From contig JAUCCH010000055.1 of NCBI GenBank assembly GCA_034676385.1, positions 1 to 40,298 of the forward strand: 40,298 nt of DNA, given 5' to 3'. The translations under genes were made by a program, and so were the position numbers. Source of the DNA: Leucobacter sp. GTDB taxonomy: Bacteria; Actinomycetota; Actinomycetes; Actinomycetales; Microbacteriaceae. The stretch's first letter is position 1. The number at the start of each line of letters is the position of its first letter. The notes below the pieces were generated by a model. The model did no database searches. It saw only the letters and a program-made list of their open reading frames with translations, and was not told the DNA's origin. Positions 3,785 through 40,298 of the stretch are shown here, in pieces.

Positions 3785-3891
3785 AGATTGTATGGGCTGT
3801 GTCAAGTTTCGTAGACGTGAGAACGCTTGATTATTGATTACGGGCTGAAGATCAGGCCACAGCCCTTTCCGCTGCCTGGAGGTTTGAACGG

Positions 3892-4761
3892 TCAAAGAAC
3901 GCCTGCATCACCGACATCGGGGTGCGATACCCCGAGGGTGGAGTGGCGACGCTTCCGGTTGTAGAACACCTCAATATATTCAGCAACCGCAAGCCTTGCC
4001 CTCGCCCGGGTGGCATAGTGGTGATGATGCCAATGCTCGTTCTTCAGCGAAGCAAACCAGCTTTCGGCGACGGCATTGTCCCAGCACACCCCAGTTCTTC
4101 CCACTGAGAGTCTCAGATCCATCAGCCTGGCCGCGTCAGCGAATTCAGCAGACGTGTATTGGGCACCTTTGTCGCTGTGAAATATTGCGTTCCCGGCGGT
4201 GTAGCCGGCGCGATGCGCCATCGTGAGCGCATCAACCATCAGCGACGTTCTCATATGGGCTGCCGTCTGCCATCCGACCACCATTCTTGTGGTCAGATCA
4301 ATCACCGTCGCAAGATACAGCCAACCTTCGCCAGTTTTGAGGTACGTGATGTCGCCCACGAGGCAGGTTGTTGGAACCGGGGGTGTGAACCGACGCCCGA
4401 TGAAGTCACGCCGGATACCGGCATCGGGCGCGGGGATCGTGGTTCGTTTCGTGGCGCGCGGCTGAATCCCTTGAATCCCGAGCTCTCGCATGAGCTGCCA
4501 CACCAGCCATGGAGACACCGTCATCCCTTGAGCAGCAAGTTCGGCATGAATGCGCCGCACCCCAAGGATTTTGTGGTGATCGATCCAGATCTTCCCGATC
4601 AGATCGGAGAGCTCTTGCCGCCGTATCTTTCGGGCATCAGGTGCTGCATGTCGCCGCTGCTTCCATGCGTAAAAACCCGCACGATGCACTTTCAGCAGTC
4701 GACACATGAACGTGACAGCATGTTGGCCTTCTTCGTGTTCGATCAGCTCGTACTTGCGCAC
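3892..4761 (-). CDS. IS3-family transposase OrfB (rve/DDE integrase core); the C-terminus is altered by a 1-nt insertion relative to copy 2
   Basis: It is identical to copy 2 OrfB apart from one M/V substitution until '...RKRRHSTLG'. Then copy 1 has CCCC (3930-3933) where copy 2 has GGG on the other strand, giving 'VSHPDVGDAGVL*' instead of the consensus-like 'YRTPMSVMQAFF...'. Confidence 0.8.
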   Translation of the reverse strand: MRKYELIEHEEGQHAVTFMCRLLKVHRAGFYAWKQRRHAAPDARKIRRQELSDLIGKIWIDHHKILGVRRIHAELAAQGMTVSPWLVWQLMRELGIQGIQPRATKRTTIPAPDAGIRRDFIGRRFTPPVPTTCLVGDITYLKTGEGWLYLATVIDLTTRMVVGWQTAAHMRTSLMVDALTMAHRAGYTAGNAIFHSDKGAQYTSAEFADAARLMDLRLSVGRTGVCWDNAVAESWFASLKNEHWHHHHYATRARARLAVAEYIEVFYNRKRRHSTLGVSHPDVGDAGVL

Positions 4762-5066
4762 TACCGCTGTTCCTTCGCGAAGAAGGCCGCCGCTTTTTTT
4801 AGGAACGTGTTTTCCTCACGCAACCGGTTGATCTCACGTTGCATCTCGTGCGGGTCTTGCGAGTAAGGGTCAGGGGTTCGGCGGGCTGACCCTGAACCAG
4901 TGCCATGCGTGCCGGTTGCTTTCCCAACCCATTTCCCGAGCGTTGATTCGTTGATTTCTAGGTCGCGGGCGACCTGGGCTCGTGTTTTGCCGAGCTCGGT
5001 TACCATGCGCACAGCGTCGGCTTTGAACTCGTCACTGAACTCTCGACGGGGTCGGAGTGTAGACAT
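4761..5066 (-). CDS. IS3-family transposase OrfA (HTH)
   Basis: The 101-aa product is identical to copy 2 OrfA. An A7G (T7 on this strand, 4794-4800) slippery run lies near the 3' end, where OrfB overlaps in the -1 frame. Confidence 0.85.
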   Translation of the reverse strand: MSTLRPRREFSDEFKADAVRMVTELGKTRAQVARDLEINESTLGKWVGKATGTHGTGSGSARRTPDPYSQDPHEMQREINRLREENTFLKKAAAFFAKEQR

Positions 5067-5243
5067 CTGATGGGATTCCTTCCAATGGAGTTCTCCTGTC
5101 TACAACAAGCATGACACCTCAATTGATGACTGGAGGTAGCAATCATGCCCTGCCTGATTGGCCACCACCCATGCAGTTTCCTACTAGATGGGCTCACGAA
5201 CATGGTAACGGGGGAACTATTCACGAACAGCCCGGCGCGGAAA

Positions 5244-6144
5244 CTAGTAGATGACTCCGTCCGGACCAACCCTAGGCGGCGCAAGCCGCTCTCGAGACGC
5301 AACCAAAGCGGCTGTGGCTGCACCATGAGCAGATAGGTCAAGCAGAGTGTTCTGAAAAGTGGCACCAGTACCTTCACGCTCTATCCGGAAGAGACAGGGA
5401 AGTCCGGAATCGCGCAAGACATTCTTGGCCTCTCGACTGAACAGCTCAAGAGCAGACGTTATCTGCACTTCCAACGCAATATACGCGCGAGCGATCAAGG
5501 TCTTCAACCCTTCAGTTGCCATTCGGATGAAGCTGATGAAGTCAGTCTCAACAGCTTCCCCCCCAGAAGTCGGCGAGCACTTCGCCGACTTTCGGTCCAC
5601 GCGCTTGCAAGAGATCACTGAGTTGCAACTTCAGCGTGGTCTCAGAGCCGTGCTCACCATGTTTGACACGCACGCTGACGAAGTTGAGAATCGTGTGGCC
5701 ATGTTCAGATGCGTTACGTAGTTCCCAGACGGTGCGGTAGTAGCCATCTTTGTCGTACGCATTCTCAAACACGGAACAGACTGCCCTCTTCGCGTCTGCA
5801 CCGAAGTGAACCTCGGCTTCATGCTCAATGCGGCGACGCAGCGCAACGTATTGCGATACCCAGCTCTCCACCAGTCGTCCTACTTCACTCCTGAAGGCAC
5901 CGTCGGATCCCATGCGCTGGGCAGCACCATTCCCAGAGAGAGCAACCAGCAATTCGTTGGCAGAGTCAATCGCGCGGCTGGTCACGGTCTGTCCTGAGAA
6001 AGCGTGAATGGCGAGAACGGCGCTAGTGAGGTCCTCAGCTTCCTGGTCAGAGAGCGGATGATCTTCGACGTAGGTGTAAGAGGCCGGAGCCTCGGGAAGC
6101 GCGACGAGGCGCCCAACGTACCAGACTGACTCAGAGCTGCGCAT
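5244..6144 (-). pseudogene. hypothetical ~313-aa protein with an Rx4H (HEPN-like) motif, frameshifted at a C7/G7 homopolymer
   Basis: Two overlapping ORFs (5548..6144 and 5244..5618) join into one protein if the 7-C run at 5558-5564 is read as 6. The product contains 'WELRNASEHGH' (R-N-x-x-x-H). Confidence 0.5.
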
Positions 6145-7147
6145 TTCTCCATACTGGACGATGCGGAGCTTGAAATGTATTGGGCACTCCGCTCGTCCTC
6201 ATAACCAGTTCCCCGGATGCATCGTCACCGCCTGGAACTCATTACTGCGGTTCAAGTCAGGGCGCCCGCTTGGAGTCCCGAGTAAACCTGGAGTTGACTC
6301 TTGACGGGGTACTTGGGGACTGAATGCATGTATCAACTTACTTTGTCGCATTGCACCCCTGGTCTCACGCGCCTGCGATGTCAAGATGCCGGTTTACCCC
6401 TTGGGCGAGAATACTCCTAGCTCTAGCGTCAACGGCTGGATCGCAGGAGCATCCTATCCCTCAAAATGTGTCGATCGTACCTGTAGCGTGTAGAGACCGT
6501 CAATATTGAGACGCCTTTCGCCGGATAGAGGTTCGCACGAACAAGGCCTGATCGGGCATGATGTCATCATGCTCATTGTCGTACTTGACTCCAATACCCT
6601 TCACTCGGATGCCTGGCTCACAGGACCACATGGTGGGAAGCTGGTCGATCTAGCCGCAGAGGGCCGCGTTCGAGTCGTAGTGCCCGAAGTCGTGCGGGAT
6701 GAAATCCTCCGTCAGCGCCGCGAAGCTGTCAAGAAAGCATGTAAAGAGGCCGACAAGGCATTGACCGCGATGGAGAAAGCCGGTGTCGATGTGAGTGAGT
6801 CGAAAGTCCGCCTGCAGGAGACCTTCGACAGGATAGACAGCGAACTCGATGACGCCTTCACGGAGCTCTTTGAAAGAGTCGGCGTCGTGATGGAGCCCAC
6901 CCCCGGGGTGAACGTCAACAAATATGTGGAACGCGACCTGGCACGTCGGCGTCCGTTTCTCGAAACTGAGCAGGAGCAGAAAAAGAAGAGTTTCGGCTTC
7001 AGAGATGTGGTGATCTGGGAAACAGTTCTCTCGGTTTTCGACGGAGCTGATCCAGGAGATACCATTCTGTTCGTCACCGCTGACAAAGGCTTCCTCGAGC
7101 GCGGTGAGCCCACGGTCCACCGTGACCTCCTCGAGGACCTCGATGAG

Positions 7148-8239
7148 CTAGTGTCCCGCGCCGGTAGTTCGTTGTAATAGTCTTTTGAGGGATTCGAGGA
7201 TCTGTTCGGCGGGCTTGGTCCAAACGAAGGGCTTCGGATTCTCGTTCCATCCTTTAACCCAGGAGCGGATATCGTTCTCCAGCGCCCGGACGCTGCGGTG
7301 ATCGGAGCGTTGGAGTAAGTCGGCAGTGATGTACGCGAAGAACCGCTCGACTTGGTTGATCCAGGACGAGTACGTCGGAGTGAAGTGCAGGTGGAACCGG
7401 GGATGCTTCTCCATCCAGGTGACGATGCTCGGGCTCTTGTGGGTGCTGTAGTTGTCGCAGACCAGATGCACGTCGAGGTGCTGGGGGACTGCGGCGTCGA
7501 TCTTGGCCAGAAACTTCCTGAACTCGATCGCCCGGTGGCGGCGGTGGATGCTGGAGATCACGGTGCCATCGGCGGTGTTGAATGCCGCGAACAGACTGGT
7601 CGTGCCATGCCGGACGTAGTCATGGGTACGTTTTTCGGGCATGCCCGGCATCATCGGGAATGCCGGCTGTGATCTCGCCAGGGCCTGCACCTGCGATTTC
7701 TCGTCGACGCAGTAGACGACGGCCGCTTCGGGCGGGTCAAGGTACAGGCCGACGATGTCGTAGACCTTGTCCACGAATTGTGGGTCGTTGGAGAGTTTGA
7801 ACCCGTCTTCTCGGTGCGGTTTCAGCTCGAACGCTTTCCAGATTCGACCGATCGTGGACTTCGACAATCCGGAGCGTTCGGCCATCTTCGCCCGCGACCA
7901 ATGCGTGGCATTCCTCGGCGTCGACTCCAACGTGGCCACGACCACATCTTCGACCTGTTCGGCCGTGATCGTCGCCGGCCGCCCCGGCCGCGGCTCATCG
8001 ACCAGGCCATCCAGACGAGCCTCCAAGAACCGAGCGCGCCATTTGCTGACCGTGTTCGTCGAGCAGCCCACCTGTGCAGCCACCGTCTTGTTGTCCAGGC
8101 CTCCGCCGCAGCCGAGCACGATCCGGGACCGCAACGCCAACGCTTGTGAGGACTTCGCCCGGCGGGACCAGCGCAGCAGCTGCTCGCGCTCCTCGTTACT
8201 CAGGATCAAGTCGGCTTTCGGGCGTCCTGTTCTCGGCAT
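7148..8239 (-). CDS. IS630-family transposase (HTH + DDE)
   Basis: The 363-aa product has an N-terminal HTH (STNTVSKWRARF), a DDE core (VYCVDEKSQ ... LVCDNYSTHKS ... WINQVERFF) and the typical length. Its stop codon TAG is completed by the host-side C of the CTAG target. Confidence 0.85.
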   Translation of the reverse strand: MPRTGRPKADLILSNEEREQLLRWSRRAKSSQALALRSRIVLGCGGGLDNKTVAAQVGCSTNTVSKWRARFLEARLDGLVDEPRPGRPATITAEQVEDVVVATLESTPRNATHWSRAKMAERSGLSKSTIGRIWKAFELKPHREDGFKLSNDPQFVDKVYDIVGLYLDPPEAAVVYCVDEKSQVQALARSQPAFPMMPGMPEKRTHDYVRHGTTSLFAAFNTADGTVISSIHRRHRAIEFRKFLAKIDAAVPQHLDVHLVCDNYSTHKSPSIVTWMEKHPRFHLHFTPTYSSWINQVERFFAYITADLLQRSDHRSVRALENDIRSWVKGWNENPKPFVWTKPAEQILESLKRLLQRTTGAGH

Positions 8240-8285
8240 ACCCCATTCTACAACTTAACCAGAGGATTTCAGGCGCGCAACACTA
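7149..8285 (-). mobile_element. IS630-family insertion sequence (~1133 bp) flanked by a duplicated TA within CTAG
   Basis: The ends read 'CTAGTGTCCCGCGCC...' on both strands (15-bp terminal IRs, 13/15 identical). TA is at 7149-7150 and 8284-8285. Precise excision restores a continuous ORF. Confidence 0.75.
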
Positions 8286-9019
8286 GGAGTCGAGCGCGGA
8301 CGCATCATAAACGCTAAGGCGCTCAACCATGTCCTGGCCGTCATCACAAGCCTGCAGGAAGCGTCTCGAGCCAATGTCGCGACCGAGGCGGTGTACGCTC
8401 TGGCAGGCGAAGAGGTCGGCATCCAGTTGGTGCACGGTGGGGACTACGGCTATCCTAACTTCGTCAAGTTCACGGTGCCCGGTTTCGAGAGCCCCACCAT
8501 TTCCGAACTAGAACTGACCACAGATTTCAAAATGACTGAGAACGGTTCCACGGTCACCGCAACAGCCGACGTCACTCTCTATCTCGACGGCGCAGTGTTT
8601 AAGGGTGACTGGTACGGCTCAGAGGACGAATTATTCCACGTCGGCTCAGAACTTAATCAGCACTATTTCGAAGCCGATGCTGAGATGACCGTTCGGGCCG
8701 TCGTCGAGCTCGATGTGAGTCGCGGTGATCCTGTCGTGACGAACATTGAGCTCCACGACAAAGAAGATGACTAGATAGCCCCGATTGCTCGACGAGCCCT
8801 AGATACGACATGGCGCCCTCTCTTGAGGTCATCTGCGAGGAATCGAATAATGCCGATTCAATGTGTATGGAAACACAGCTCCTGATCGTCGAACGTACGC
8901 CCGAGCGCAAGCACATCTACTGGTTTCCCACCTACTAAGCATCTTCTGGCTTCGAGAATCCGTGGTGGTTAGAGCGGTGAGAGAGTAAACCACCCGAGGA
9001 GGAGCACTGGATATCGATT

Positions 9020-9211
9020 GTGCTCGGCGACTGGGAGGTCGCGCGGTGCAAGTACGTCCTAGCAGGTCCACGTACGGAACGTGTATTCGGTGAACTTTTG
9101 CACGGACAGCTCGGCATTCTTGCACTAGAGGTCGCTGGCTCGATGCGCCGCAAGGGCCTCGGGCGTGCATCAGTCCAGGTCATCGGAATCCGAATCCCCT
9201 TTCACGATTGA
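9020..9211 (+). pseudogene. GNAT acetyltransferase fragment (motif A region only)
   Basis: 'GQLGILALEVAGSMRRKGLGRASV' resembles GNAT motif A. It is only 63 aa and sits in a non-coding-looking stretch. Confidence 0.25.
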
Positions 9212-9655
9212 CCGCCCTAAATGATGGTGCCGAGCCGAGTCTGCCACTCTGTAAGTAGAATGAAAGATGCTGATCCCGAGAATCCGTTCTCAGAAGTTAT
9301 GAACGTCGGCGGCTATGGAGCTCCCAAGCGCCGCGAGAACGAGCAGTTTTAACATCGGGGCTTCAACAACTAGCGCCAAGCACCTCGGGTGAACTGTTGT
9401 AACGAGCATCCACACAAGGAAATACCAGATCAAGAACCACTAGCTGCGTGATAGTAGTGCAGCGAAGACAACCTGACCGGTGCCCCAATTACCAATGTCA
9501 CGGCAGAGCACGAGCCCCCGCCTGGTTACCAAGAGGGGTCAGATGGAGTCGAGCGTACGGACTAAGGGCGGGCGAAGGTTTACCCCGTGATTGCGGAGGC
9601 AGCAGCCAACTTTTCCCTGCGGGACACCGAGTTACTCACTCACTCGCGCGAGATT

Positions 9656-9848
9656 CTAACCAGACAGGTACATCACCTTTGCTCGGTCTGCCTGGTCGTC
9701 CGCAAAACCGGGCTTCCTCAGCTTGACCCCTGCCGATCTCAGGTGACGCGCCACCGTCTGCCGGTGCACGCTGAATGCCCTGGCTACCTCATTTTGCAGA
9801 CGCGCCTGACTCGTAGAGGGCAACCATGTCGGCGGTCATTTGTGGGGT
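9656..9848 (-). pseudogene. serine recombinase (resolvase/invertase-like) C-terminal HTH remnant with a frameshift
   Basis: 'TPQMTADMVALYESGAS' is followed after a 1-nt frame change by 'VARAFSVHRQTVARHLRSAG', which matches the resolvase C-terminal pattern (LTPEQ..L...G.S...IA..FGVSR.TVYRHL). No catalytic N-terminal domain is present. Confidence 0.35.
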
Positions 9849-10108
9849 GACCGAGTTTCGAACCTTCTCAATCAAAGCTACTACACGACCTCTTTGGTCA
9901 GTAATTTCAGTCGAAGAACCCGGATCACGGTCCAGCTTGATCCCGCTTCTCGCCCGTGAAACCAACGTTTTCAGGGCGCGGGACGAGATTCGAACGTCAT
10001 CCTGCCGGGGGCACTTAACTGAAACGTATCGCGAGACCTTACATCGTTGTGCCACAATAATTCGGAATCGACTGCTTGCCGCGACGGCGTGCCAGTAAGC
10101 TGCGATGC

Positions 10109-10321
10109 ATGACTGAAGTTGAGCCTGGAACCTACGAGCACTTCAAAGGCGCACGCTATGAGGTATTCGGCACGGGGCACCACTCCGAGACGGAAGAACC
10201 CCTCGTGTTTTATCGCAAGCTTTACGATGACTATAGTTTTTGGGCGCGCCCACTCGATATGTTTACGGAACGAGTTGAACGAGACGGTTACAGTGGTCCG
10301 CGGTTTCGCCGCATCTCGTAA
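10109..10321 (+). CDS. DUF1653 family protein
   Basis: 'PGTYEHFKGARYEVFGTGHHSETEEPLVFYRKLYDDYSFWARPLDMFTE' matches the DUF1653 signature (YRHYKGGxYxVLG.ARHSETEExLVVYxxLYGDxxLWVRPLxMF). Confidence 0.7.
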   Translation: MTEVEPGTYEHFKGARYEVFGTGHHSETEEPLVFYRKLYDDYSFWARPLDMFTERVERDGYSGPRFRRIS

Positions 10322-10418
10322 CGAGTGCAATTCAATGGCGCCCGTGTAGAAACTAGGGAGGTGAATATACCCGGCGAAATGCGCGCCGAAGTGCAGCGCG
10401 TTCTGTTTACACTGGAGC

Positions 10419-11522
10419 ATGCGTCAAGCCATCGGTCAGCGCCCCGAGCAGGGGAGTGACGGCGGGTCTGCCTTCAGTGGAGCGATTGCGCACCTCTCAC
10501 CCGGGTACTTTGCCCTCGTCATGGGGACCGGTATCGTGTCGATCGGGTTGCACCTGACCGGCTTTGTTTTATTGTCGATCATTTTGCTCTGGATCGCGGG
10601 AGTCTCGTACGCAGTGCTGTGGGTGCTGTACATCTGGAGAGCGATTACCCACCGTGCTGAGATGCTGCACGACTTGCGCAGCCCCGAGATGGCTTTCGCC
10701 TATTTCACTGTGGTAGCTGGTACTAATGTGCTCGCAGTACGACTGACGCAAGAGGGGCTGGTCAGCATCGCGCTGCCATTGTTTCTCTTCGCTGCGGTGC
10801 TCTGGTTTGTTTTTGGTTACGTGCTGCCCTGGCAGGTGTTCATGACGCGTGACGGCAAGCCGATCCTGGCCCGGACGAACGGCACTTGGTTTATCTGGGC
10901 TGTAGCGAGCCAATCTCTCGCAATCGGTATGGCACAAGTGCAGCCGTACTTCGAAGCGGCTGCGAAGTGGGTCGGTCTCCTCGCTGTTCTTTCCTGGTCG
11001 GTCGGAGTAGCTCTGTACGCGGGTGTCGCGATGCTGGTGTTGCTGCGTATCATCCACTACGGCATTACGCCCAAAGAGTTCGAGCCGCCCTACTGGGTTG
11101 CCATGGGGGCGATGGCGATTGCCGTCGTCGCGGGAACGAACATCATCGATATGCAGTCGACTCCTATGGTTGAGGCAACCCGCGAGCTCATAGCAGGAAC
11201 GGTAGTCGTGTTCTGGAGCTTCTGCGTCTGGCTTATTCCTATGCTCATCGGAGCAGGCGTCTGGCGTCACGTGATTCATAAGATCCCGCTCACTTACGTG
11301 CCGACAATGTGGTCGATAGTCTTCCCAGTCGGAATGTTCGCTGTAGCGTCAATCAACCTCGGCCGCGTGGATGCGCTCCCACTGGTTGAGGTGATCGGAG
11401 ACGGTGCTCTCGTCGTGGCAATTTTGGTGTGGGCGCTCGTGTTTCTTGCGATGATTCGGAGCATGCTTCGAGTGATCGTGAATACATTTCGGTTCATACC
11501 AAAGGTTATGCAACAACCTTAG
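10419..11522 (+). CDS. TDT-family (TehA / C4-dicarboxylate / SLAC1-like) membrane transporter
   Basis: A polytopic membrane protein with the N-terminal 'SPGYFALVMGTGIVSIG' motif typical of TehA/Mae1. Confidence 0.75.
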   Translation: MRQAIGQRPEQGSDGGSAFSGAIAHLSPGYFALVMGTGIVSIGLHLTGFVLLSIILLWIAGVSYAVLWVLYIWRAITHRAEMLHDLRSPEMAFAYFTVVAGTNVLAVRLTQEGLVSIALPLFLFAAVLWFVFGYVLPWQVFMTRDGKPILARTNGTWFIWAVASQSLAIGMAQVQPYFEAAAKWVGLLAVLSWSVGVALYAGVAMLVLLRIIHYGITPKEFEPPYWVAMGAMAIAVVAGTNIIDMQSTPMVEATRELIAGTVVVFWSFCVWLIPMLIGAGVWRHVIHKIPLTYVPTMWSIVFPVGMFAVASINLGRVDALPLVEVIGDGALVVAILVWALVFLAMIRSMLRVIVNTFRFIPKVMQQP

Positions 11523-11529
11523 GTATGGA

Positions 11530-12750
11530 TTACGGCTTGACGCTGATCACATCCCGGTAGAGCGGGCTCTTTTCCTTCATCGCAGCGCGAGCTGAATCAT
11601 CCACGCCACACGGGATCGAAGTCTCCATGCACTCCATGAGGGTGGGTTCGGCGACCGTACCCGCGAGCCTAAACGAATCAATCAAGAATGGAAGCCCGTT
11701 TGAGGCGAGCGGCAGTGGTGAGTCCATCACATGAAAATGCAGGTGCGGTATATCTGTGTTGCCCGAGTTGCCGAGCTGGCCGATCACATCGCCGCGCCTC
11801 AGGTCTTGCCCAACAGTAAGGTCGCGGGGGTTCTTGCCTTGCAGGTGCGCATAGAACGCATAGTGTCCGCCGCCAATATCTTGCACGATATGGTTGCCGC
11901 CATACTGCGAGAGTTCCAGGCCTACGGGGTGTGCGCCCGGTGTTTCTTCGGGCAGATCCCACTCCATCGACACGATTGGGCCATCTGCGACTGCAAGAAT
12001 ATCGGCACCATAGTAAGCGAAACTTGTGATGTCGTCGTTCGCACCGTCGAAGATCCGGCCACTGTCGTCAAGCTGTACGAAATCAATTGCGAAGCGTTCG
12101 GGAGCGTAAAGGGCGCCGTTGATGGGGTTGATCGCGCTCCGGTGCGGAGTCACCTCGCAGCAGCTATTTCCATCGAGCCAGTTGTCTCCGGCCACTGGTG
12201 AAGCGATCACAATTGGTGTATTGCTGTCGACACTAGTGCGAGCGATTGTTTGTGTCATTGATTTCTCGATGAGCGGTGGAATCGCAATCTCGGGTGAGAA
12301 CTCAATGGTGTGGGTCAGCTCTTTCGGGGTTTTTGTTTCCGCTGGCAACGTCACATCTAATGTGATGACCGCCTGCTGGCCGGGCGCCATCATCCGGCCA
12401 GGGGTTGGTCCGCCGGATGGACGCATCCATGGAGTGAGATCATCGTCGCCGAGTTGTAGCAGTTCGATGCCATCAGCTTCTACTGCGACGGACTCCATAG
12501 TGACGGGCACGCCGATCACGTTGGTGAGCACGAGTTCATAAGCGAGGTGGGTCAGCCCATCTGTCGCGGGGACTGCAACAGGTGTTGCGAGCACCGATCC
12601 CACGATTGGCGTAAAGATTTCTTCGGTAGCTACGGGGGAATCACTGGGCGACGCAGAGGCGGATTCCGTTGGCGAAATACTCGATGCCGAACACCCGCAC
12701 AGTACGGCTGCAGTAACGATTCCTATGATGACACTCGCTCGTGTGCGCAT
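11530..12750 (-). CDS. M23 (LytM-type) peptidase lipoprotein
   Basis: Signal peptide with lipobox 'AAVLCGC'. HxxxD 'GNHIVQD' and HxH 'PHLHFHV' zinc-site motifs are present. Confidence 0.8.
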   Translation of the reverse strand: MRTRASVIIGIVTAAVLCGCSASSISPTESASASPSDSPVATEEIFTPIVGSVLATPVAVPATDGLTHLAYELVLTNVIGVPVTMESVAVEADGIELLQLGDDDLTPWMRPSGGPTPGRMMAPGQQAVITLDVTLPAETKTPKELTHTIEFSPEIAIPPLIEKSMTQTIARTSVDSNTPIVIASPVAGDNWLDGNSCCEVTPHRSAINPINGALYAPERFAIDFVQLDDSGRIFDGANDDITSFAYYGADILAVADGPIVSMEWDLPEETPGAHPVGLELSQYGGNHIVQDIGGGHYAFYAHLQGKNPRDLTVGQDLRRGDVIGQLGNSGNTDIPHLHFHVMDSPLPLASNGLPFLIDSFRLAGTVAEPTLMECMETSIPCGVDDSARAAMKEKSPLYRDVISVKP

Positions 12751-12822
12751 GTGCTCAGTATGTCATTTTGAAGTCGTGCAGTCGATCAAAAAGAGTCGAT
12801 TTCAAAGAGGGTAACCGGAATG

Positions 12823-13269
12823 TTACGCCTCGGCGATCTCCGTCAGAACATCGAGAAAGGTCTGCCAGCCAGCGATGGTGGCGTTTTGCTGCTCTAAGGT
12901 GAACCCTGGAGTCTGTTGGGTCATTTGCAGCCTGGTTCCGTTACCATTCGGCAGGAGTTCGAAGTTCAACACAGCTTGCTCCGCGTCTCCCGGCTGATCA
13001 GTAATCGTCATCACCAATTTGGACGGTGGCGACACCTCCAAGAACTCTCCGGTCCATTCGATTGTGTTCTGATCAGGAAGCACCATCTTTGCTGACCAGG
13101 CACGCCCTGCCACTGCGTGGTAGTCAAGTGTGTTTAGAGGAACCTGAACCGCTGCTCCTCCAAACCACCGCGCGAATGACTCTGGCGTGGTCAACGCAGC
13201 AAACACTGAGGCAGGCTCCGCAGCAACTATACGTTCGACCTCAATGCTGTCGTTGGTTGGGCCAGTCAT
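12823..13269 (-). CDS. SRPBCC / AHSA1-like small-molecule-binding domain protein
   Basis: 148 aa with the 'AEPASVFAALTTPESFARWFG' pattern typical of the Bet v1-like SRPBCC fold. Confidence 0.65.
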   Translation of the reverse strand: MTGPTNDSIEVERIVAAEPASVFAALTTPESFARWFGGAAVQVPLNTLDYHAVAGRAWSAKMVLPDQNTIEWTGEFLEVSPPSKLVMTITDQPGDAEQAVLNFELLPNGNGTRLQMTQQTPGFTLEQQNATIAGWQTFLDVLTEIAEA

Positions 13270-13349
13270 TTTGCGTCCTCGTTTCTTGAGTCGGTGTGTA
13301 GGGCTTTGCGTCCTCGTATTTCAGATCCTAATCTCATAGTGTTGAAAAT

Positions 13350-28964: not shown

Positions 28965-28992
28965 TTGGGCCCGATATCGGGGGGCCTTGTCT

Positions 28993-29229: not shown

Positions 29230-29241
29230 CTGCGCATCCGA

Positions 29242-30294: not shown

Positions 30295-30312
30295 CGAAGG
30301 CTCCTCGGATTG

Positions 30313-30333
30313 GTGATATTAAAATGATATCAC
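30313..30333. promoter_or_regulatory. AT-rich inverted repeat GTGATAT-N7-ATATCAC in the divergent SPFH/kynU promoter region
   Basis: Read directly. It may simply be -10-like AT-rich promoter DNA. Confidence 0.3.
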
Positions 30334-30415
30334 TTTAAGTGTCCGTAGCTTGAAGCCAGAAAATCTTTGAGTAAGGGTCTGACGAAGAGTCACCCTTCTC
30401 CCATAACATGACTGA

Positions 30416-31714: not shown

Positions 31715-31728
31715 TCGGAGGGTCAGCG

Positions 31729-32922
31729 TTGCAACTTGAGGTTCCAGAGTTTGATACCGCTGCCCTCACTGAGAAGCCTGATTTCAGAACTGCGAGTGAA
31801 TTTGAGAGTGTTGCAACCGTAAAGTTTGCGCGTCGGCCCACACCGGTGGTCCGCACGGTGGCTTCAGTGATCCTCGATACCGTTGCGTTTTTCCTGTGGA
31901 TATTGCTCTGCATTCTGACCATGCTTTGGCCGTTCACACTTGAGACTGAGAATCGGGCATTTGATGAGCCGGTCGAGAAATTTGCTCTTGGACTGATATT
32001 GGTGATTCCGGTCAGCATTGCCTATTTTGCGATAGGAGGGCTAGTGATCTGGTTGCTTCAGCGGGGTAAGTCCGAGAACTTTCCCCGTCATCGGCTGAAC
32101 CAGTTTGCAGGCGCGAACGGCATGACGTACACACCGAAAGTGAAGCTCGCTGATGGTTCAGCGGCCTTCGACGTCATCGCTGGAGGCGAATCAGTACGGA
32201 TAGAAGTAGGCAACCTGCACCTGCCGGTCCCGGCTACCAAATCGGGAGCCACCGCGTTTGCATACGGGTATGCAGCCGTTCAGTTGCCGAGCCCTCTGCC
32301 CCACATCGTGCTGGATGCCGTTCGAAATGACGGAGTCTTTTCGCTCAGTGCCGGGCTGGATCGGGATCAGCACCTCAGCCTTGAGGGGGACTTTGATCGT
32401 TACTTCAGACTGTTCTGTGCAGACGGTTATGAGCGGGATGCCCTGTACATCTTCACACCGGACGTGATGGACAGCTTTATCAATGGTGCGGATCTGCTCG
32501 AGGCGGAGTTTCGTAACGATGTGCTTTTTCTTTACAGCGCAAGAGAATTGAGCACGACGAACCCGGAAGATTGGGCACTTGTCTCGCGCGCAATCGGAGC
32601 GATTCTGCCTCAGTTCACCTCGTGGGAACGATGGCGCGATACAGCTCGTGATGAATCGATCACGCCGCTCCCAGTGCCTGTCGAATCCTCTCCGATGCTC
32701 ACCGAGCCCCATTCGGTGTCAGCTGAGCTAACACCAGATGGGGCAGGGAATAATGTGGAGAATACTGCCTTGGTTTCAGATGACCTGCTTATCGCCCGAC
32801 GAACTGACGAGTTGGTGACTACACCGATGAAGCGTAGGGCGCCTCTCTGGGTGCGGTTCTTGCAGGTTGCGGTGGCCGTCTACAGTCTGGCGTTGATCAG
32901 CCTGATCTTTATTTTTGATTAG
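31729..32922 (+). CDS. hypothetical membrane protein (two N-terminal TM helices, a large central domain and a C-terminal TM helix); start uncertain
   Basis: A long ORF of 31672..32922 overlaps the kynU 3' end. A TTG at 31729 or a downstream GTG is the likely start. No recognisable catalytic motif was found. Local GC is lower than in neighbouring genes. Confidence 0.45.
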   Translation: MQLEVPEFDTAALTEKPDFRTASEFESVATVKFARRPTPVVRTVASVILDTVAFFLWILLCILTMLWPFTLETENRAFDEPVEKFALGLILVIPVSIAYFAIGGLVIWLLQRGKSENFPRHRLNQFAGANGMTYTPKVKLADGSAAFDVIAGGESVRIEVGNLHLPVPATKSGATAFAYGYAAVQLPSPLPHIVLDAVRNDGVFSLSAGLDRDQHLSLEGDFDRYFRLFCADGYERDALYIFTPDVMDSFINGADLLEAEFRNDVLFLYSARELSTTNPEDWALVSRAIGAILPQFTSWERWRDTARDESITPLPVPVESSPMLTEPHSVSAELTPDGAGNNVENTALVSDDLLIARRTDELVTTPMKRRAPLWVRFLQVAVAVYSLALISLIFIFD

Positions 32923-32942
32923 TTCAGTGTCGGACGCACCGG

Positions 32943-33836
32943 CTACCAAGTAGCATCAAGTGCTGCCTGGAAATTGAGCAGGCGATCCTCGTCGGGAAAA
33001 GGCAACTCGACCCCATCGATGGTCGTCACTGTCCGAATACCGTGCAGCGCGTTCACTGCCCAAACTTCGTGTCTCGCTAGCGTGGTCGGGAACTTGTTCT
33101 CTTGGTGAACCGGGACTCCGCGGCCAACAGCGAAGTTGCGAAGTGCGTACTCGGTGATAGACGGCACACGGCCTCCATCTTGTGAGACGCAGAGGGTACC
33201 GTCTTGCCACCAGAGAAAACTTGTGGTGGCTCCTTCAACAACCTGCCCAAGTTCGTTCGTGAGCAGCGCCTCTGCGCCGAGTTCTTGGTTCAGTTGTGCG
33301 TAACGTGCAATGTTTGGGCCCTTGCGGTCTCGGTGGTCAATCGGCGAGAAATCGGCAGTTCGAGCCTCTATGCTTTGGCCAAGCTCTGGCAAGTGTCTGA
33401 GCGAGAGTCGGAGCTGCTGATCGGTGATTTTCGACTGCTGCGCAGCCGGAACACCCCAGAGTTCAAGCCTGGGCCAACCGACACCAAACGCCGGAAGATG
33501 CTGCCGAACGTCAGCGAGAAACGTTTCAATCAATTCGGATACTTCGCGTTGCGCTGGGGTTCGGGTATCTATGAGCAGGATTGAGCCATCGTCATCTGGC
33601 CAGTTGTCATCCGGCGGTCGCATACCGGTGATTTCGATCGCACTGAGTGCGGCAGCACGGATTTCCTCGGGTAGTTCGGGCACCTGCGTTTCCGTACTCT
33701 GCGAAGCATCAAGGGCGGACACCTTGAACCTTGCGAAATGAGCGTGGAGATTGCGCACCTCAAGCTCACCGCTCTCAGGGTGTGCGCGCACCCGGAACGA
33801 GTCTGCGACCAGTAGTTCCGGTTCTTCGTGCGTCAT
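32943..33836 (-). CDS. pabC: class IV aminotransferase-fold protein, probable aminodeoxychorismate lyase
   Basis: 'ALLTNELGQVVEGATTSFLWWQDGTLCVSQDGGRVPSITEYAL' matches the PabC/BCAT-fold C-terminal motif and a 'RDRKGPNIARY' Lys is present. Start is taken at the internal Met (MTHEE) of ORF 32943..34001. It is divergent from pabB. Confidence 0.6.
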   Translation of the reverse strand: MTHEEPELLVADSFRVRAHPESGELEVRNLHAHFARFKVSALDASQSTETQVPELPEEIRAAALSAIEITGMRPPDDNWPDDDGSILLIDTRTPAQREVSELIETFLADVRQHLPAFGVGWPRLELWGVPAAQQSKITDQQLRLSLRHLPELGQSIEARTADFSPIDHRDRKGPNIARYAQLNQELGAEALLTNELGQVVEGATTSFLWWQDGTLCVSQDGGRVPSITEYALRNFAVGRGVPVHQENKFPTTLARHEVWAVNALHGIRTVTTIDGVELPFPDEDRLLNFQAALDATW

Positions 33837-33909
33837 GGTTCCATCTTTGCAGCCTGGCCGCCGCTTCGCTCGATCACACCTCCGCAGCACGCCGCAGTAA
33901 AGTGGTCGA

Positions 33910-35265
33910 GTGGTCGTGCGTGTAGTGAACTGGCCGCGCGAAACCGCATCGGTCGCGCGCAGTTTGGCGAGGGCTGACGCCTGGTTCTGGCTTGATGGCA
34001 CCGCGGCGGAGCCCGGCGGCTCTGCGGGAGTCAGCTATCTCGGCGAAACGGCCAAGGTTTTGCATTCCTCTAGCGGCAACGAACGCGAGTTTTTGCGAGA
34101 CTTCGCCGTACACTTCGAGACCGAGCTAGACAGCACTGGCTGGGTCGTTGCGCTGGGTTACGAATTTGGTGTGGGGCTCATGGGCGAGGATCCCGCGACC
34201 GATGATGTTCCGCCGGCTTTCGCGCTGCGACCCTCGACCGTGCTCGTGCTTAACCATTCGAATCAGACCGCGGAGCTCCGTGGCGAGAGCGACGCGGCGA
34301 TTGATGCTTGGCTCGGGAAGCATGGCTCCGCCTTCGAGGAGCAACCCATTCGGGACCTGCCGCTAGAGGCCATAGGGGTGTCTGGTTCATTCGTCGGCCC
34401 ACGAGCCGCACCCGTTTCAACCTGGCGCCGCAGCGATGCTCAGTACCTTGAGGATGTTCGGAAATGCAAGCATGCTATTCACGAAGGTGATGCCTACGTG
34501 CTCTGCCTCACCGATACCGCCGAGATTGCCGAACTCGCCGTCGACCCACTGAGCCTGTATCTCGAGATACTTGCGGGTGGGGCTGCGGTTCGCGGGGCAG
34601 TGATCGTGGCCGGTGATCGTGCTCTGGTGAGTACAAGCCCAGAGCGGTTCTTGAGCAAACGGGGCAAGAGCTTAGCGACGCACCCGATCAAGGGCACACG
34701 GGCAAGGGGGGACACACCGGAGGCTGACGCGATCCTCGCCAACGAGCTTGCTGCCGACCCGAAAGAGCGCTCAGAAAACCTGATGATTGTCGACCTCATG
34801 CGCAATGATCTCAGCAGGGTGTGCATTCCCGGCAGCGTGGATATCGAGGGGTTTCTTCGAGTGGAAAGCCACCCTCGCGTGCACCAGCTCGTGAGCTCGG
34901 TGATTGGTCAGATTCGCGACGATGCGGACATGATTGATGCGATCGAGGCGTGTTTTCCGGGAGGATCGATGACCGGCGCACCGAAGCGACGGGCAGTACA
35001 GCTACTTTCGGCACTGGAAAGCGACCCAAGAGGGCTGTATTCGGGCTGCTTCGGGTGGCTCGGCGACGATGGCGACGCTGAGCTCGCCATGAGTATTCGG
35101 TGCGTTGAATTGCGGGGAAAGCCGGGATTCGGGCAGCGGGCGTTCGTGGGTGCTGGTGGGGGAGTTACCTCCGACAGCGTGCCCACCCGGGAGCTGGCGG
35201 AGAAACAGCTAAAGTCCGCTTCTCTGCTCGCTGCTCTGGAGCGGATCGATTCCGAGTATCCTTGA
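33910..35265 (+). CDS. pabB: aminodeoxychorismate synthase component I (chorismate-binding enzyme family)
   Basis: '[20 protein letters not shown] ... [23 protein letters not shown]...[24 protein letters not shown]' matches chorismate-utilising enzyme motifs. At 451 aa it fits PabB better than TrpE. Confidence 0.75.
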
Positions 35266-35317
35266 ACGGTGTGTGCTCGCGTGCAGCGAGCCGGTTTTTC
35301 GATGTTTCGAGGTATGT

Positions 35318-37970
35318 GTGAACGAGCAGCAAGCAAACGCCACGACAGAGGTCGACGCGGAGGCTTATGACTTCCAGGCCATTCAAGACCGGTGGCTACC
35401 GGTCTGGGACGAGCTGAAGCCTTTCGAGGTGGGCAACGATCTTACGGGTGAGAAGCCAAAGAAGTACGTGCTTGATATGTTCCCGTACCCCTCCGGCGAC
35501 CTGCATATGGGTCACGCCGAGGCGTTCTGCTTTGGTGACGTGCTCGCCCGCTACTGGCGTGGGCGCGGCTATGACGTGCTGCACCCGATCGGTTGGGACA
35601 GTTTCGGTCTGCCCGCAGAGAACGCCGCAATCAAGCGAGGCATCGATCCTCGCGAGTGGACGTACGCAAATATCGCGCAGCAAAAGACGAGCTTCCGTGT
35701 GTACGCACCCAGCTTTGACTGGAGTAGGCAGCTGCACACGAGCGACCCCGAGTACTACAAGTGGAACCAGTGGCTGTTCCTCAAAATGTACGAAAAGGGC
35801 CTTGCGTACCGTAAGGCAAGCTGGGTCAACTGGGATCCGGTAGACCAGACGGTGCTTGCAAACGAGCAGGTGCTCGCCGATGGCACCTCGGAGCGCTCGG
35901 GCGCGATGGTGGTTAAGAAGAAGCTGACCCAGTGGTACTTCAGGATCACCGACTACGCGGATCGTCTGCTCGATGACCTGGATGCGCTCGAGGGCCAGTG
36001 GCCCACCAAGGTGCTGAGCATGCAGCGCAACTGGATCGGCAGGTCCGAGGGCGCTGAGGTCGAGTTCGAAATTGAAGGACCCGAGGACCGGGTTCCGGTC
36101 TTTACGACCCGCCCCGATACTCTATTCGGCGCAACATTTATGGTGGTGGCTCCAGACAGCGATCTCGCTTCGGACTCGCCGCAAGTGCGTCCGAAGAAGT
36201 TCAGATGCAGTTTGCGGAATACCTCACTGCGACGCAGAAGCAGAGCGAGATCGATCGCCAGACGGCAGATCGCGACAAGACCGGCGTCTTCCTCGATCAC
36301 TTCGCGATTAACCCCGTTAACGGCGAACGTATTCCCGTGTGGGCATCCGATTACGTGCTCGCCAAGTATGGTCACGGCGCCATCATGGCCGTCCCCGCTC
36401 ACGATCAGCGTGACCTTGATTTTGCACTGAAGTTTGAGCTGCCTGTGCGCGTTGTTGTTGAGGTGCGTGATGAGGACGGCGAAGTACTGCCTAACCCGCA
36501 GACCATGCAGGCATAGCAACGGCCGGCGACGGCCGGATCGTGAACTCCGGTGATCTTGATGGCTTGGGCAAGGTTGAAGCAATCGCCAAGGCGATCGAAC
36601 TGCTCGAAGCGCGCGGCACGGGGCGGGCGACGAAGACCTACCGCCTGCGTGACTGGTTGATCTCGCGCCAGCGTTACTGGGGTACCCCGATTCCGATTCT
36701 TCACGGTGCTGAAGACGGGAATGCGGGCGAGATGCGCCCAGTTGAGCAGAGCAAGCTACCTGTTCGTCTCCCCGCAACTGAGGGACTCGACCTGAAGCCC
36801 AAGGGATCCTCGCCCCTGGGTGCCGCAACCGAGTGGTCGAACGTGACGGACGCAGACGGCCACGCTTGGACCCGAGACCCAGACACGATGGATACTTTCG
36901 TCGATAGTTCCTGGTACTTCCTGCGTTTCCTTTCGGCGACTGACGACACCCAGGCCTTCGACCCTGCGCTCGTCAACGCCTGGGGTCCGATCGACCAGTA
37001 TGCGGGTGGCGTCGAGCACGCAATTCTGCATCTGCTCTACTCACGCTTCATTACGAAGGTGCTGCACGATCTCGGCTATCTCGATTTTGAAGAACCGTTT
37101 ACGGCACTGCTGAACCAGGGCATGGTGCTGCAAGACGGCGCGAAGATGTCGAAGTCGAAGGGCAACCTCGTCGAGTTCGCTTCGGAGCTGCAGGCGCACG
37201 GTGCCGACGCGCTGCGCGTAACTCTCGCGTTTGCTGGCCCTCCCGAGGACGACATTGACTGGGCCGATGTTTCGGTGCAGGGTTCGGCGAAGTTCCTCGC
37301 ACGTGCTTGGCGTGTAGCTGGGGACGTCTCGAGCGACGTGGGTGTCGACTACTTTCGCTGGTGGTGACGCGGGGCTTCGGCGCCACACGCACAAGTTACT
37401 CGCCGATGCGCCCGGCTTGGTCGAACACTACAAGTTCAACGTGCTTGTCGCTCGCCTCATGGATCAGGTCAACGTGACCCGTAAGGCTATCGACTCTGGC
37501 GTGGGCTCGGCTGATCCCGCTGTGCGCGAGTCCGCAGAAGCGATCGCGATGATCCTCTCACTCTTCGCTCCCTACGCTGCTGAAGACATGTGGGCGAAGC
37601 TCGGACATGAGCCAACGGTTGCGCTTCAGGTGTGGCCTTCTGCAGACGAATCGTTGCTCGTGGAGAACGAGGTCACAATGGTCGTGCAGGTTGACGGCAA
37701 GGTGCGCGAGCGCCTCACGCTTCCGCCTCGGTCAGCGAGGCTGAGGCTGAGGCAGCTGCGATGGCATCTGAGTCAGTGAAGCGCGCGATCGGTGACCGCC
37801 AGATTGTGAACCTGATTGTGCGAGTTCCAGAAGATCGTGAGCATCGCGACGAAGCCATAACTTCGATCTGCGATCGTTATGAGCGGCCCGCATCCTCGGA
37901 TTTGAGGGTGCGGGTCGTTCGTTCTGTACGGGAAACTTATCTCCCGCGCTTGGCGACAAAAAGTACGTAA
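35318..37970 (+). pseudogene. leuS: leucyl-tRNA synthetase split into five ORFs by four single-nucleotide deletions (as assembled)
   Basis: The HMGH class-I motif ([15 protein letters not shown]) and KMSKS are present. LeuS-like sequence continues across ORFs 35273..36430, 36205..36516, 36540..37367, 37342..37779 and 37761..37970, with frame changes near 36175, 36508, 37350 and 37725. Each is consistent with one missing base. The 3' tail past ~37850 overlaps holA and is probably a read-through artefact. Confidence 0.85.
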
Positions 37971-38960
37971 CGCTCGAGCGCGTAGACAGGGTCTCTGCTG
38001 CCGCCCTTCAGCGCAAGCTCGGTCTCCGCAGCGAGGTCGATCGCTTTGGCGAGATCTCCCTCGGTCCATCCGCGGGTTTTTCTTCTGCGCACGCTCGACC
38101 ATCCACGGTGCCATGCCGAACGTTGAAGCAAGCTCACCGGAGCTGCCTCGAGCACCGTAGACCCTGGCCATTCCCCGGACTTTCATGTTGAGGGCTGCCA
38201 GCATTGGGATAGGGTAGGTGCCGGTGCTCAAAGCCTGGCGCAATAGTACGAGCGCATCTGCTGCGCCGCCAGCCGTAGCCGCGTCAGCAACCTTGAACGC
38301 ACCTGCCTCGACCCGACCCTCGGTTGAGCGTTCAATGTCCGATTCGGTCAGGCGCTTGCCCACATCAGAACAAGGACCTGTTCAATGGCACCTGCCAGCT
38401 CACCCAGCCCGCCCTGATACGCAGCGACAAGCGCGCGAAGTGCGTTTTGGCGCAATCTGCGCCTCAAGACACCGAAACTCGGACTGTGCAAAGCCGAGCC
38501 TGTCGCTGTCCTTCTTTACCTCGGCGCAGACAATCTCGATGGCACCGATTGAGCCTCCCGCGTCGCCGCGCACGGCATCGAGCAAGGCCTTGCCTCGCTG
38601 ACCGCTCGCATGCCGAAGCACCAGAGTGGTGTCATCTGCGGGCTGCGTGAGGTAGCGTTTCGCATCCTCGAGAAAGGCATCACTCGCCTTTTCGACGCCC
38701 TCAACTCGTATGAGTCTTGGTTCGGCGAAGAGTGACGGGCTCGCGACCGTAAAGAGCTCGCCCTGTCCGTAGCTCGCTGCATCGATGTCGTGAATTTCGA
38801 CTGCCGCGTCGTTTGACCGGAGCATTTCGCGAATCGTTCTTGTCGCGCGATCTGCAAGAAATTGCTCGGGCCCACTGATCAGGACTACGGGCGCAGGACG
38901 CGCCTCGTTATACCCGATCTTGATGATCTTTGCCTTGCTGGTTTTCGTTGCCGCTGCCAC
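37773..38960 (-). pseudogene. holA: DNA polymerase III delta subunit, split into two ORFs by a frameshift near 38365-38400
   Basis: The N-terminal 'VVLISGPEQFLADRATRTIREML' and C-terminal 'GAFKVADAATAGGAADALVLLRQALSTGTYPIPMLAALNMKVRGMARV' match HolA. The GTG start at 38960 has an in-frame TGA just upstream. Confidence 0.7.
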
Positions 38961-39030
38961 GTTTCAAGCCTAGTCTGAGGTGTCATGCTTGTTGTAGACA
39001 GGAGAACTCCATTGGAAGGAATCCCATCAG

Positions 39031-39336
39031 ATGTCTACACTCCGACCCCGTCGAGAGTTCAGTGACGAGTTCAAAGCCGACGCTGTGCGCATGGTAACCG
39101 AGCTCGGCAAAACACGAGCCCAGGTCGCCCGCGACCTAGAAATCAACGAATCAACGCTCGGGAAATGGGTTGGGAAAGCAACCGGCACGCATGGCACTGG
39201 TTCAGGGTCAGCCCGCCGAACCCCTGACCCTTACTCGCAAGACCCGCACGAGATGCAACGTGAGATCAACCGGTTGCGTGAGGAAAACACGTTCCTAAAA
39301 AAAGCGGCGGCCTTCTTCGCGAAGGAACAGCGGTAG
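39031..39336 (+). CDS. IS3-family transposase OrfA (HTH)
   Basis: Identical to copy 1 OrfA. Confidence 0.85.
   Translation: MSTLRPRREFSDEFKADAVRMVTELGKTRAQVARDLEINESTLGKWVGKATGTHGTGSGSARRTPDPYSQDPHEMQREINRLREENTFLKKAAAFFAKEQR
39297..39304 (+). other. A7G slippery run for programmed -1 ribosomal frameshifting (OrfA to OrfAB)
   Basis: 'CTAAAAAAAGCG' lies 30 nt before the orfA stop. The -1 frame is open from here into orfB (KKSGGLLREGTAVV-RKYELIEH...), as in IS3/IS911-type elements. Confidence 0.6.
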
Positions 39337-40244
39337 TGCGCAAGTACGAGCTGATCGAACACGAAGAAGGCCAACATGCTGTCACGTTCATGTGTCGACT
39401 GCTGAAAGTGCATCGTGCGGGTTTTTACGCATGGAAGCAGCGGCGACATGCAGCACCTGATGCCCGAAAGATACGGCGGCAAGAGCTCTCCGATCTGATC
39501 GGGAAGATCTGGATCGATCACCACAAAATCCTTGGGGTGCGGCGCATTCATGCCGAACTTGCTGCTCAAGGGATGACGGTGTCTCCATGGCTGGTGTGGC
39601 AGCTCATGCGAGAGCTCGGGATTCAAGGGATTCAGCCGCGCGCCACGAAACGAACCACGATCCCCGCGCCCGATGCCGGTATCCGGCGTGACTTCATCGG
39701 GCGTCGGTTCACACCCCCGGTTCCAACAACCTGCCTCGTGGGCGACATCACGTACCTCAAAACTGGCGAAGGTTGGCTGTATCTTGCGACGGTGATTGAT
39801 CTGACCACAAGAATGGTGGTCGGATGGCAGACGGCAGCCCATATGAGAACGTCGCTGGTGGTTGATGCGCTCACGATGGCGCATCGCGCCGGCTACACCG
39901 CCGGGAACGCAATATTTCACAGCGACAAAGGTGCCCAATACACGTCTGCTGAATTCGCTGACGCGGCCAGGCTGATGGATCTGAGACTCTCAGTGGGAAG
40001 AACTGGGGTGTGCTGGGACAATGCCGTCGCCGAAAGCTGGTTTGCTTCGCTGAAGAACGAGCATTGGCATCATCACCACTATGCCACCCGGGCGAGGGCA
40101 AGGCTTGCGGTTGCTGAATATATTGAGGTGTTCTACAACCGGAAGCGTCGCCACTCCACCCTCGGGTATCGCACCCCGATGTCGGTGATGCAGGCGTTCT
40201 TTGACCGTTCAAACCTCCAGGCAGCGGAAAGGGCTGTGGCCTGA
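39336..40244 (+). CDS. IS3-family transposase OrfB (rve integrase core, DDE), intact copy
   Basis: The 302-aa product ends with the family-typical '...RKRRHSTLGYRTPMSVMQAFF'. The GTG start overlaps the orfA stop. Confidence 0.85.
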   Translation: MRKYELIEHEEGQHAVTFMCRLLKVHRAGFYAWKQRRHAAPDARKIRRQELSDLIGKIWIDHHKILGVRRIHAELAAQGMTVSPWLVWQLMRELGIQGIQPRATKRTTIPAPDAGIRRDFIGRRFTPPVPTTCLVGDITYLKTGEGWLYLATVIDLTTRMVVGWQTAAHMRTSLVVDALTMAHRAGYTAGNAIFHSDKGAQYTSAEFADAARLMDLRLSVGRTGVCWDNAVAESWFASLKNEHWHHHHYATRARARLAVAEYIEVFYNRKRRHSTLGYRTPMSVMQAFFDRSNLQAAERAVA

Positions 40245-40298
40245 TCTTCAGCCCGTAATCAATAATCAAGCGTTCTCACGTCTACGAAACTTGACACA

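Follow-up and report, generated by a model that had tools for sequence, protein, structure and literature searches.

The experimentally studied IS3-family insertion sequences (ISs) IS911, IS3, IS150 and IS2 carry two genes, orfA and orfB, that are joined by a -1 frameshift on an A-rich heptamer followed by a downstream structure. Their ends read TG...CA, a -35 box at the tip of the right inverted repeat (IRR) is suited to a junction promoter, and they make a 3-bp duplication (PMC3299598, PMC11708052). Where the duplication is missing, the known causes are recombination of one copy with another, loss of neighboring DNA by deletion, and decay (PMC11708052). The IS elements of Brevibacterium aurantiacum have been catalogued as ISBli1 to ISBli35 in ISfinder (PMC6579920). 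We analyzed a stretch of 40,298 nucleotides (nt), called the window below, which is one whole contig (JAUCCH010000055.1) of an NCBI metagenome-assembled genome assigned to Leucobacter sp. It carries two inverted copies of an element that resembles the studied ISs in its orfA/orfB layout with a predicted -1 frameshift, its ends, its -35 box and, as seen at other copies and in a related IS, the 3-bp duplication. In our reading, to which we give a probability of about 0.82, this is a catalogued IS3-family element that occurs twice on a noisy metagenome contig: copy 2 was inserted in place between chromosomal genes, while copy 1 is found in IS-rich accessory DNA, with no canonical target duplication.

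The proteins of the element place it in the IS3 family. Copy 2 orfB scored 295.8 bits on NF033516, the NCBIfam model of the family (cutoff, 160), orfA aligned with the 88 positions at the N-terminal end of that model, and rve, HTH_21 and HTH_Tnp_1 domains are recorded for proteins identical to those of its open reading frames (ORFs). The element therefore has both the DDE (rve-type) transposase and the match to a curated family model that are expected of an IS3 member. It also has the two ORFs of the family, with orfB in the -1 frame and a candidate A-rich slippery heptamer in the overlap. The original prediction had reported an A7G frameshift site in both copies, and we found it in both (Table 1). 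A -1 shift at the A7 run yields a predicted OrfAB of 404 amino acids (aa). Along its whole length, this protein has 95% identity with WP_113717718.1, a fused IS3 family transposase in RefSeq. A predicted stem-loop begins directly after the slippery run, and its 11-bp perfect core, GGCCUUCUUCG/CGAAGAAGGCC, lies 5 nt downstream; the fold has an energy of -38.2 kcal/mol (z = -3.3), and 0 of 200 shuffled sequences were as stable. The element is bounded by imperfect terminal inverted repeats of the TG...CA type, TGAGGTGTCA...TGACACAGCCCA, and its length of 1328 bp lies within the range of about 1.2 to 1.55 kb that is typical of the family.

By analogy with other IS3-family elements, OrfAB would be made by programmed -1 frameshifting, and transposition would follow the copy-out/paste-in route via a figure-of-eight and a circle (PMC3299598, PMC11708052). 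The IRR contains TTGACA, a perfect -35 box, 7 nt from its tip, and the left inverted repeat (IRL) contains the -10-like hexamer CATGCT, which would lie 18 nt downstream of TTGACA given a 3-bp spacer. The circle junction would, again by analogy, join the two as a junction promoter, and insertion would duplicate 3 bp of the target. The exact orfA and orfB proteins are present on many metagenome contigs, several of them from sewage. Judged by its sequence, then, the element is an ordinary, already catalogued IS3-family IS that occurs in public databases at 95 to 100% protein identity.

A repeat search of the window returned one long inverted repeat, with arms 3931-5121/38976-40166 and 3798-3932/40164-40298. 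The arms are offset by a single base, and a chance match is excluded. The search confirms the two near-identical inverted copies, described earlier as about 33.9 kb apart; the spacing between them is 33,854 nt (5122 to 38975). Compared directly, the copies differ at exactly two places across 1323 common positions. One is the 1-nt insertion that had been noticed before: copy 1 has C4 at 3930-3933 (G4 in IS orientation), and copy 2 has G3 at 40164-40166. The other, which had been missed, is a substitution at IS position 883, where copy 1 has A (window position 4239; Met) and copy 2 has G (39858; Val). All other copies that are readable at these positions have G3 and G883, as copy 2 does, and both variants are thus private to copy 1. 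The indel shifts the orfB frame just ahead of the conserved HSTLGYRTP motif. A pattern search with the IRL and IRR found no solo or partial ends of the element elsewhere in the window.

We set the ends of the element from 13 other full copies, which lie on metagenome contigs with unrelated flanks, and from a related IS in a complete genome. In all 13 copies, similarity begins at TGAGGTG and stops at ...CAGCCCA, which gives the length of 1328 bp. Since every other full copy closes with ...CAGCCCA, copy 1 ends at 3793 and not at 3791, the position from which it had been drawn before (3791 to 5121), and the TA at 3791-3792 lies outside the IS. The 4-bp ATTG duplication that had been ascribed to copy 1 needs this TA to be counted as part of the IS, and it cannot be upheld: in IS orientation, the bases that directly adjoin the element are AAT next to the IRL and TAC next to the IRR, and the two triplets do not match. 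In Brevibacterium sp. LE-L, whose genome is closed, each of the three copies of the related IS has a perfect 3-bp duplication (AAT, GAG and AGA). Two of the 11 fully flanked metagenome copies of the window's own IS likewise have 3-bp duplications (CAC and GAC). The rest have none, as is to be expected where assemblers of short reads connect whichever flanks they meet across a repeat with many copies. As read from these aligned copies, the target duplication rule is 3 bp, and copy 1 is without a canonical duplication. Its two flanks may owe their present pairing to recombination with a third copy or to a deletion next to the element; they may also form an atypical junction, or the assembler may have put them together across a repeat that has many copies. 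The case carries a practical caution: IS ends that are drawn from one copy by means of a flanking direct repeat can be a few bases off and so create a false target duplication.

The neighbors of copy 1 did not reveal an empty site. On its left, a 106-aa orphan gene (3464-3784, minus strand) has its ATG 8 nt from the IRR tip, and the IS replaced whatever lay upstream; this gene has no homologue besides itself among 5.8 billion protein clusters. On its right, a 299-aa orphan gene has homologues only at two loci (L111 and L112; 78 to 86% identity), where it stands in other contexts. Similarity to both ends exactly at the stop codon, and hence neither locus supplies an empty site. A pattern joining both flanks with a gap of 0 to 12 nt had no match in the JGI metagenome contigs. 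When the IS is removed, a continuous ORF appears across the site; we rejected it as evidence because its upstream part is not coding-like.

The position of copy 2 is more telling. The 18 nt of the minus strand that adjoin its IRL read GAC TAG GCTTGAAAC GTG, and the comEC/holA junction of a relative whose HolA is 85% identical (L103) has the same layout, ...CAG TAG GCTTGTGAC GTG. Copy 2 precedes the stop codon of comEC by 3 nt and lies upstream of holA by 15 nt. In L103 and two further relatives (L104 and L108), the gene order is comEA>comEC>holA><leuS<pabB, with leuS and holA convergent as in the window. Two others (L105 and L106) have the holA/leuS/pabB part of the window's order, with neither comEA nor comEC upstream of holA. 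In the more distant relatives L092, L102, L107 and L109, the genes are co-directional, in the order leuS>comEA>comEC>holA>. The comEC/holA junction is uninterrupted in relatives without the IS. Because copy 2 splits the junction between comEC stop and holA start in a gene order common to relatives, we conclude that it inserted in place; comEC, preceded by a repeat of GTC, is expected just past the contig end. We considered and rejected the convergent leuS>/<holA arrangement as an IS-linked rearrangement, since the closest relatives have the same order; it goes back to an old, clade-level inversion of the comEA-comEC-holA block that is unrelated to the IS. If holA is co-transcribed with comEC, it is now 1.3 kb of IS away from its promoter. 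A promoter search found no outward sigma-70-like promoter near copy 2 reading into holA. If the separation of holA from comEC is real, holA expression must come through or out of the IS.

The quality of the contig bears on how far the differences between the copies can be trusted. The window, whose length equals the one recorded for the contig of its proteins, begins in an IS1380 remnant and ends in copy 2, 5 nt short of its end; contig ends that both fall within ISs are what an assembly usually shows where it breaks at repeats. In addition to the copy 1 indel, we counted at least 12 reading-frame lesions (Table 1), 11 of them frameshifts and one an in-frame stop; eight lie in leuS and holA (35273-38960), where two pairs of indels compensate each other (37725/37829 and 38370/38444). 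Both are single-copy essential genes, and both are intact in the relatives L103 to L108. A LeuS protein from another NCBI contig (P0001; 98% identical) is uninterrupted at the first two leuS frameshifts of the window and has another frameshift of its own. Genes split in a similar way are found on L102 and L092, two further long-read contigs from related organisms. At least two of the indels lie in homopolymer or near-homopolymer runs (C7 at 5558-5564 and a stretch rich in T at 38083); that of the mscS-like gene is in a two-base T run. The most economical reading of the lesions is an indel-prone long-read consensus of the contig.

The same reading extends to copy 1. Because its indel lies in a homopolymer and the contig has so many other frame lesions, eight of them in the essential leuS and holA, this indel is probably an assembly error. 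G4 and A883 probably reflect the indel-prone consensus rather than a dead copy, and against this background they are as likely to be consensus errors as mutations. Copy 2 encodes the widespread, presumably functional, proteins, and reads from every copy would have gone into the polishing of its sequence. The original prediction held that the insertion truncates the OrfB of copy 1 and that copy 2 is probably the active one. The frame does shift in the assembled sequence; as a statement about biology, the truncation is unsafe, given the homopolymer and the 12 or more other lesions. The inference about activity is weak for the same reason, the indel being probably a consensus error. More generally, where many essential genes of a long-read metagenome contig are broken, a difference of one base between the copies of a repeat should not be given a biological meaning.

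Could the whole stretch from one copy to the other be a single mobile unit? Inverted IS copies around a cargo are the layout of Tn5- and Tn10-type composite transposons. A composite would be flanked as a whole by one target duplication and would carry its cargo as a unit away from its native context; here, however, the cargo would be 28 kb of chromosomal genes ordered as in relatives without the IS, with the native pabB-leuS-holA order kept. Moreover, copy 2 cuts the native comEC/holA junction, leaving the comEC stop codon inside the supposed cargo, and IS3-family elements move as single-element circles. We regard a composite as having next to no chance of being right. The evidence supports instead two independent IS3-family insertions, as read from the sequence of their surroundings, on an IS-rich replicon. 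This was also the conclusion reached earlier, and it stands because copy 2 was inserted in place at a conserved comEC/holA junction, not because of any duplication at copy 1; the ATTG argument used for it does not. The description of the DNA as IS-rich holds as well, with four IS-related elements in 40 kb and both contig ends within IS sequences. An inverted pair could in principle serve as a RecA-dependent substrate for a 34-kb inversion, a generic possibility, and the window sequence bears no sign that inversion between the copies has occurred. It is very improbable that the present arrangement is itself the product of such an event. The missing canonical duplication at copy 1 would fit it, as would a switch in GC skew from negative values over 1-6 kb to positive ones over 6-38 kb. 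In the left half of a reciprocal exchange of flanks, however, GTA at 3790-3792 predicts TAC to the left of copy 2, and GTC is found there (38973-38975). Undoing the inversion would put holA beside the accessory left flank and not beside comEC, and the convergent leuS/holA order is native to the clade. On the left of copy 1, the skew was read from 3.8 kb of accessory DNA; with a flank so short and so low in GC (52% over 1-4 kb), we set GC skew aside as uninformative about inversion.

Some observations weigh against the reading that we prefer. CAAT recurs 2 nt past the IRR end of copy 1, for which the probability by chance is about 2 to 8% depending on the offsets allowed; a simple insertion whose junction is atypical may therefore account for copy 1 after all. 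The sequence reads ...tcAAT-IS-TAC AATcta; copy 1 could thus be an independent insertion with an AAT duplication (ATT on the plus strand) and three extra bases, TAC, at the IRR end, or with a 4-bp CAAT duplication and two extra bases. A simple insertion predicts that the uninterrupted 3790/5122 junction reads ...AGATTGATGAC.... The extra TAC could be a 3-bp circle-junction spacer brought from the donor site; in IS3-family elements the circle-junction spacer has the length of the duplication, 2 to 4 bp (PMC3299598). Yet such extra bases were seen in none of the 11 other fully flanked copies and in none of the three closed-genome copies of the related IS, we found no direct statement in the literature of a spacer retained in integrated IS3-group copies, and no empty site was found. 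We consider a simple insertion possible but doubtful. The lesions, too, do not all behave as expected of a noisy consensus. The final 3.6 kb of unique sequence, next to copy 2, holds eight of them, yet pepN, cydA and cydB are undamaged, a pattern that a uniform error rate does not explain. In cydD, the stop codon arises by a substitution and not by a typical homopolymer indel. Our guess is that the cluster is due to weak read support next to the terminal repeat. Alternatively, the lesions could be real, either in an IS-expanded organism that is forming pseudogenes or in a leuS-holA stretch that decays as a redundant duplicate; in that case copy 1 would be truly defective, with a truncated transposase C terminus. 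The uneven spread of the lesions, the nonsense substitution and the four IS-related elements in 40 kb would all suit real decay, and a polar effect of copy 2 on holA is to be expected if the gene is transcribed together with comEC. Against it stand the intact single-copy essential leuS and holA of L103 to L108, the 98%-identical LeuS of another assembly that lacks these frameshifts and has a different one, the similarly split genes on the related long-read contigs L102 and L092, and the location of at least two indels in homopolymer or near-homopolymer runs, with the mscS-like one in its two-base T run. Real lesions are, in our view, unlikely. Still less likely is the full combination of real lesions, in a decaying IS-expanded lineage or a duplicated segment losing leuS and holA, with a copy 1 that was naturally inactivated and bears a 3-nt donor-site spacer at its right end. 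If that were true, the spacer of copy 1 would be a rare footprint of an IS3 circle intermediate. We thus retain the reading of a catalogued IS3-family element present twice on a noisy contig.

Table 1. Coordinates of the two IS copies, their flanks, the neighboring features and the reading-frame lesions of the window
Feature	Position	Strand	Remarks
IS3-family element, copy 1	3793..5121	-	1329 nt (other copies, 1328 nt); IRL 5098-5121 and IRR 3793-3816 by pattern match
orfA of copy 1	4761..5066	-	101 aa, HTH_Tnp_1 type
orfB of copy 1 as assembled	3892..4761	-	289 aa; DDE region present, C terminus frameshifted
C4 run of copy 1	3930..3933		One-base difference from all other copies
Substitution of copy 1	4239..4239		IS position 883
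Slippery run of copy 1	4794..4800	-	T7 on plus strand, A7 on coding strand
Copy 1 flank, IRR side	3785..3792		AGATTGTA on plus strand; ATTG offset from IS end by TA
Copy 1 flank, IRL side	5122..5125		ATTG
IS3-family element, copy 2	38976..40298	+	IS positions 1-1323 of 1328; contig end removes GCCCA (5 nt)
orfA of copy 2	39031..39336	+	101 aa; exact protein on 72 other contigs of the protein collection
orfB of copy 2	39336..40244	+	302-aa ORF; exact protein on 10 contigs
Slippery heptamer of copy 2	39297..39303	+	A_AAA_AAA, then G; in orfA frame
Predicted stem-loop of copy 2	39304..39382	+	Candidate frameshift stimulator
Copy 2 insertion site	38958..38975	-	comEC last codon GAC 38973-38975, comEC stop TAG 38970-38972, 9-nt gap, holA start GTG 38958-38960
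DNA between the copies	5122..38975		About 5.3 kb accessory and about 28.5 kb chromosomal genes
IS1380-family transposase remnant	1-951	-	Profile positions 2-228 in three frames (619-951, 423-620, 158-418); remainder beyond contig start
299-aa orphan gene	5244-6144	-	Frameshifted in C7 run 5558-5564
IS630-family transposase	7148-8239	-	NF033545, 263.8 bits; overlaps 3' end of PIN_12 gene (6506-7177)
pepN	15852-18503
rpiB	19372-19863		TIGR02133, 188.6 bits
Lesion, IS1380 transposase	158-951		Three frames, at least two shifts
Lesion, 299-aa gene	5558-5564		+1 in C7 run
Lesion, mscS-like gene (14952-15846)	~15455	-	+1 T; transmembrane domain in one ORF, beta and C-terminal domains in the next
Lesion, cydD	27040-27042		In-frame TAA by substitution, directly ahead of the LSGGQ signature; Glu (GAA) is the normal residue of ABC transporters at this place
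Lesions, leuS	36172, 36508, 37349, 37725, 37829		Five frame-breaking indels relative to L103
Lesions, holA	38083, 38370, 38444		Three frame-breaking indels relative to L103

The chromosomal genes between the copies are glbO, an mscS-like gene, pepN, a gene for an Rv2466c-like protein, rpiB, nei, yceI, cydABDC, pabB, leuS and holA; pepN, rpiB, nei, cydABDC, leuS and holA, which the original prediction had named there, are all in place. Its description of the bracketed DNA as core genes fits the roughly 28.5 kb of chromosomal DNA and not the first 5.3 kb, which is accessory (PIN genes and an IS630-family transposase). This accessory stretch, from 5122 to about 10400, comprises the 299-aa gene, a PIN_12 gene and the IS630-family transposase, around which no clear terminal inverted repeats were found at 7148-8239. 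The 3.8 kb to the left of copy 1 is accessory as well, with an ASCH-domain gene, a PIN-GNAT gene and, at the contig start, the IS1380-family transposase. GC skew changes sign near copy 1, which fits foreign accessory DNA on its left. One homologue of the 299-aa gene (L111) lies in an actinobacterial region that resembles an integrative and conjugative element (ICE), with TrbL, ParB, Prim-Pol and ArdC genes. We discarded an ICE origin for the left part of the window, as the 299-aa gene alone is common to the window and this locus. The PIN-GNAT gene, a 343-aa ORF at 2256-3287 on the minus strand, has an N-terminal PIN_3 and a C-terminal GNAT match, both weak and near the Pfam thresholds, and could be a fused toxin-type module. 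Within the chromosomal part, the nei/fpg-like gene at 19864-20937 (plus strand) has about 130 residues between its N-terminal glycosylase domain (1-76) and its H2TH domain (212-302), an unusually long insert. The window contains no tRNA or Rfam matches.

The biological weight of the locus is low: IS3 elements, a frameshifted transposase and inverted copies as recombination substrates are all textbook matter. Compared with IS911, IS3, IS150 and IS2, which have been studied by experiment, the window's element has the heptamer A_AAA_AAA in place of the usual A_AAA_AAG. The nearest element that bears an IS name in the annotated collections searched is ISGmo1, on the Gulosibacter molinativorax plasmid NZ_CP028427.1. 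It is likewise an IS3-family element of an actinobacterial (Microbacteriaceae) host, and its OrfB aligned with the window's over 98% of its length; however, the two OrfB proteins are 57.5% identical in aa, and DNA likeness is limited to about 100 nt. The 1331-bp IS of Brevibacterium sp. LE-L (NZ_CP189759.1; loci L001, L002 and L009) has ends, TGGGGTGTCATG...TTGACACAGTCCA, that are very similar to those of the window's element, including the TTGACA of the IRR. It is also nearly equal in length and makes 3-bp duplications, but its OrfB is only 65% identical. An IS3 element of B. aurantiacum (WP_113717718.1/AOP52481.1), compared by protein, has the same orfA/orfB layout and frameshift position as the window's element, and its OrfB falls in the same 90% cluster. 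This counterpart is probably one of the ISBli elements; PMC6579920 gave no ISfinder name for it. It differs from the window's element by 5% aa divergence and by its host, the window belonging to a Microbacteriaceae-like metagenome genome.

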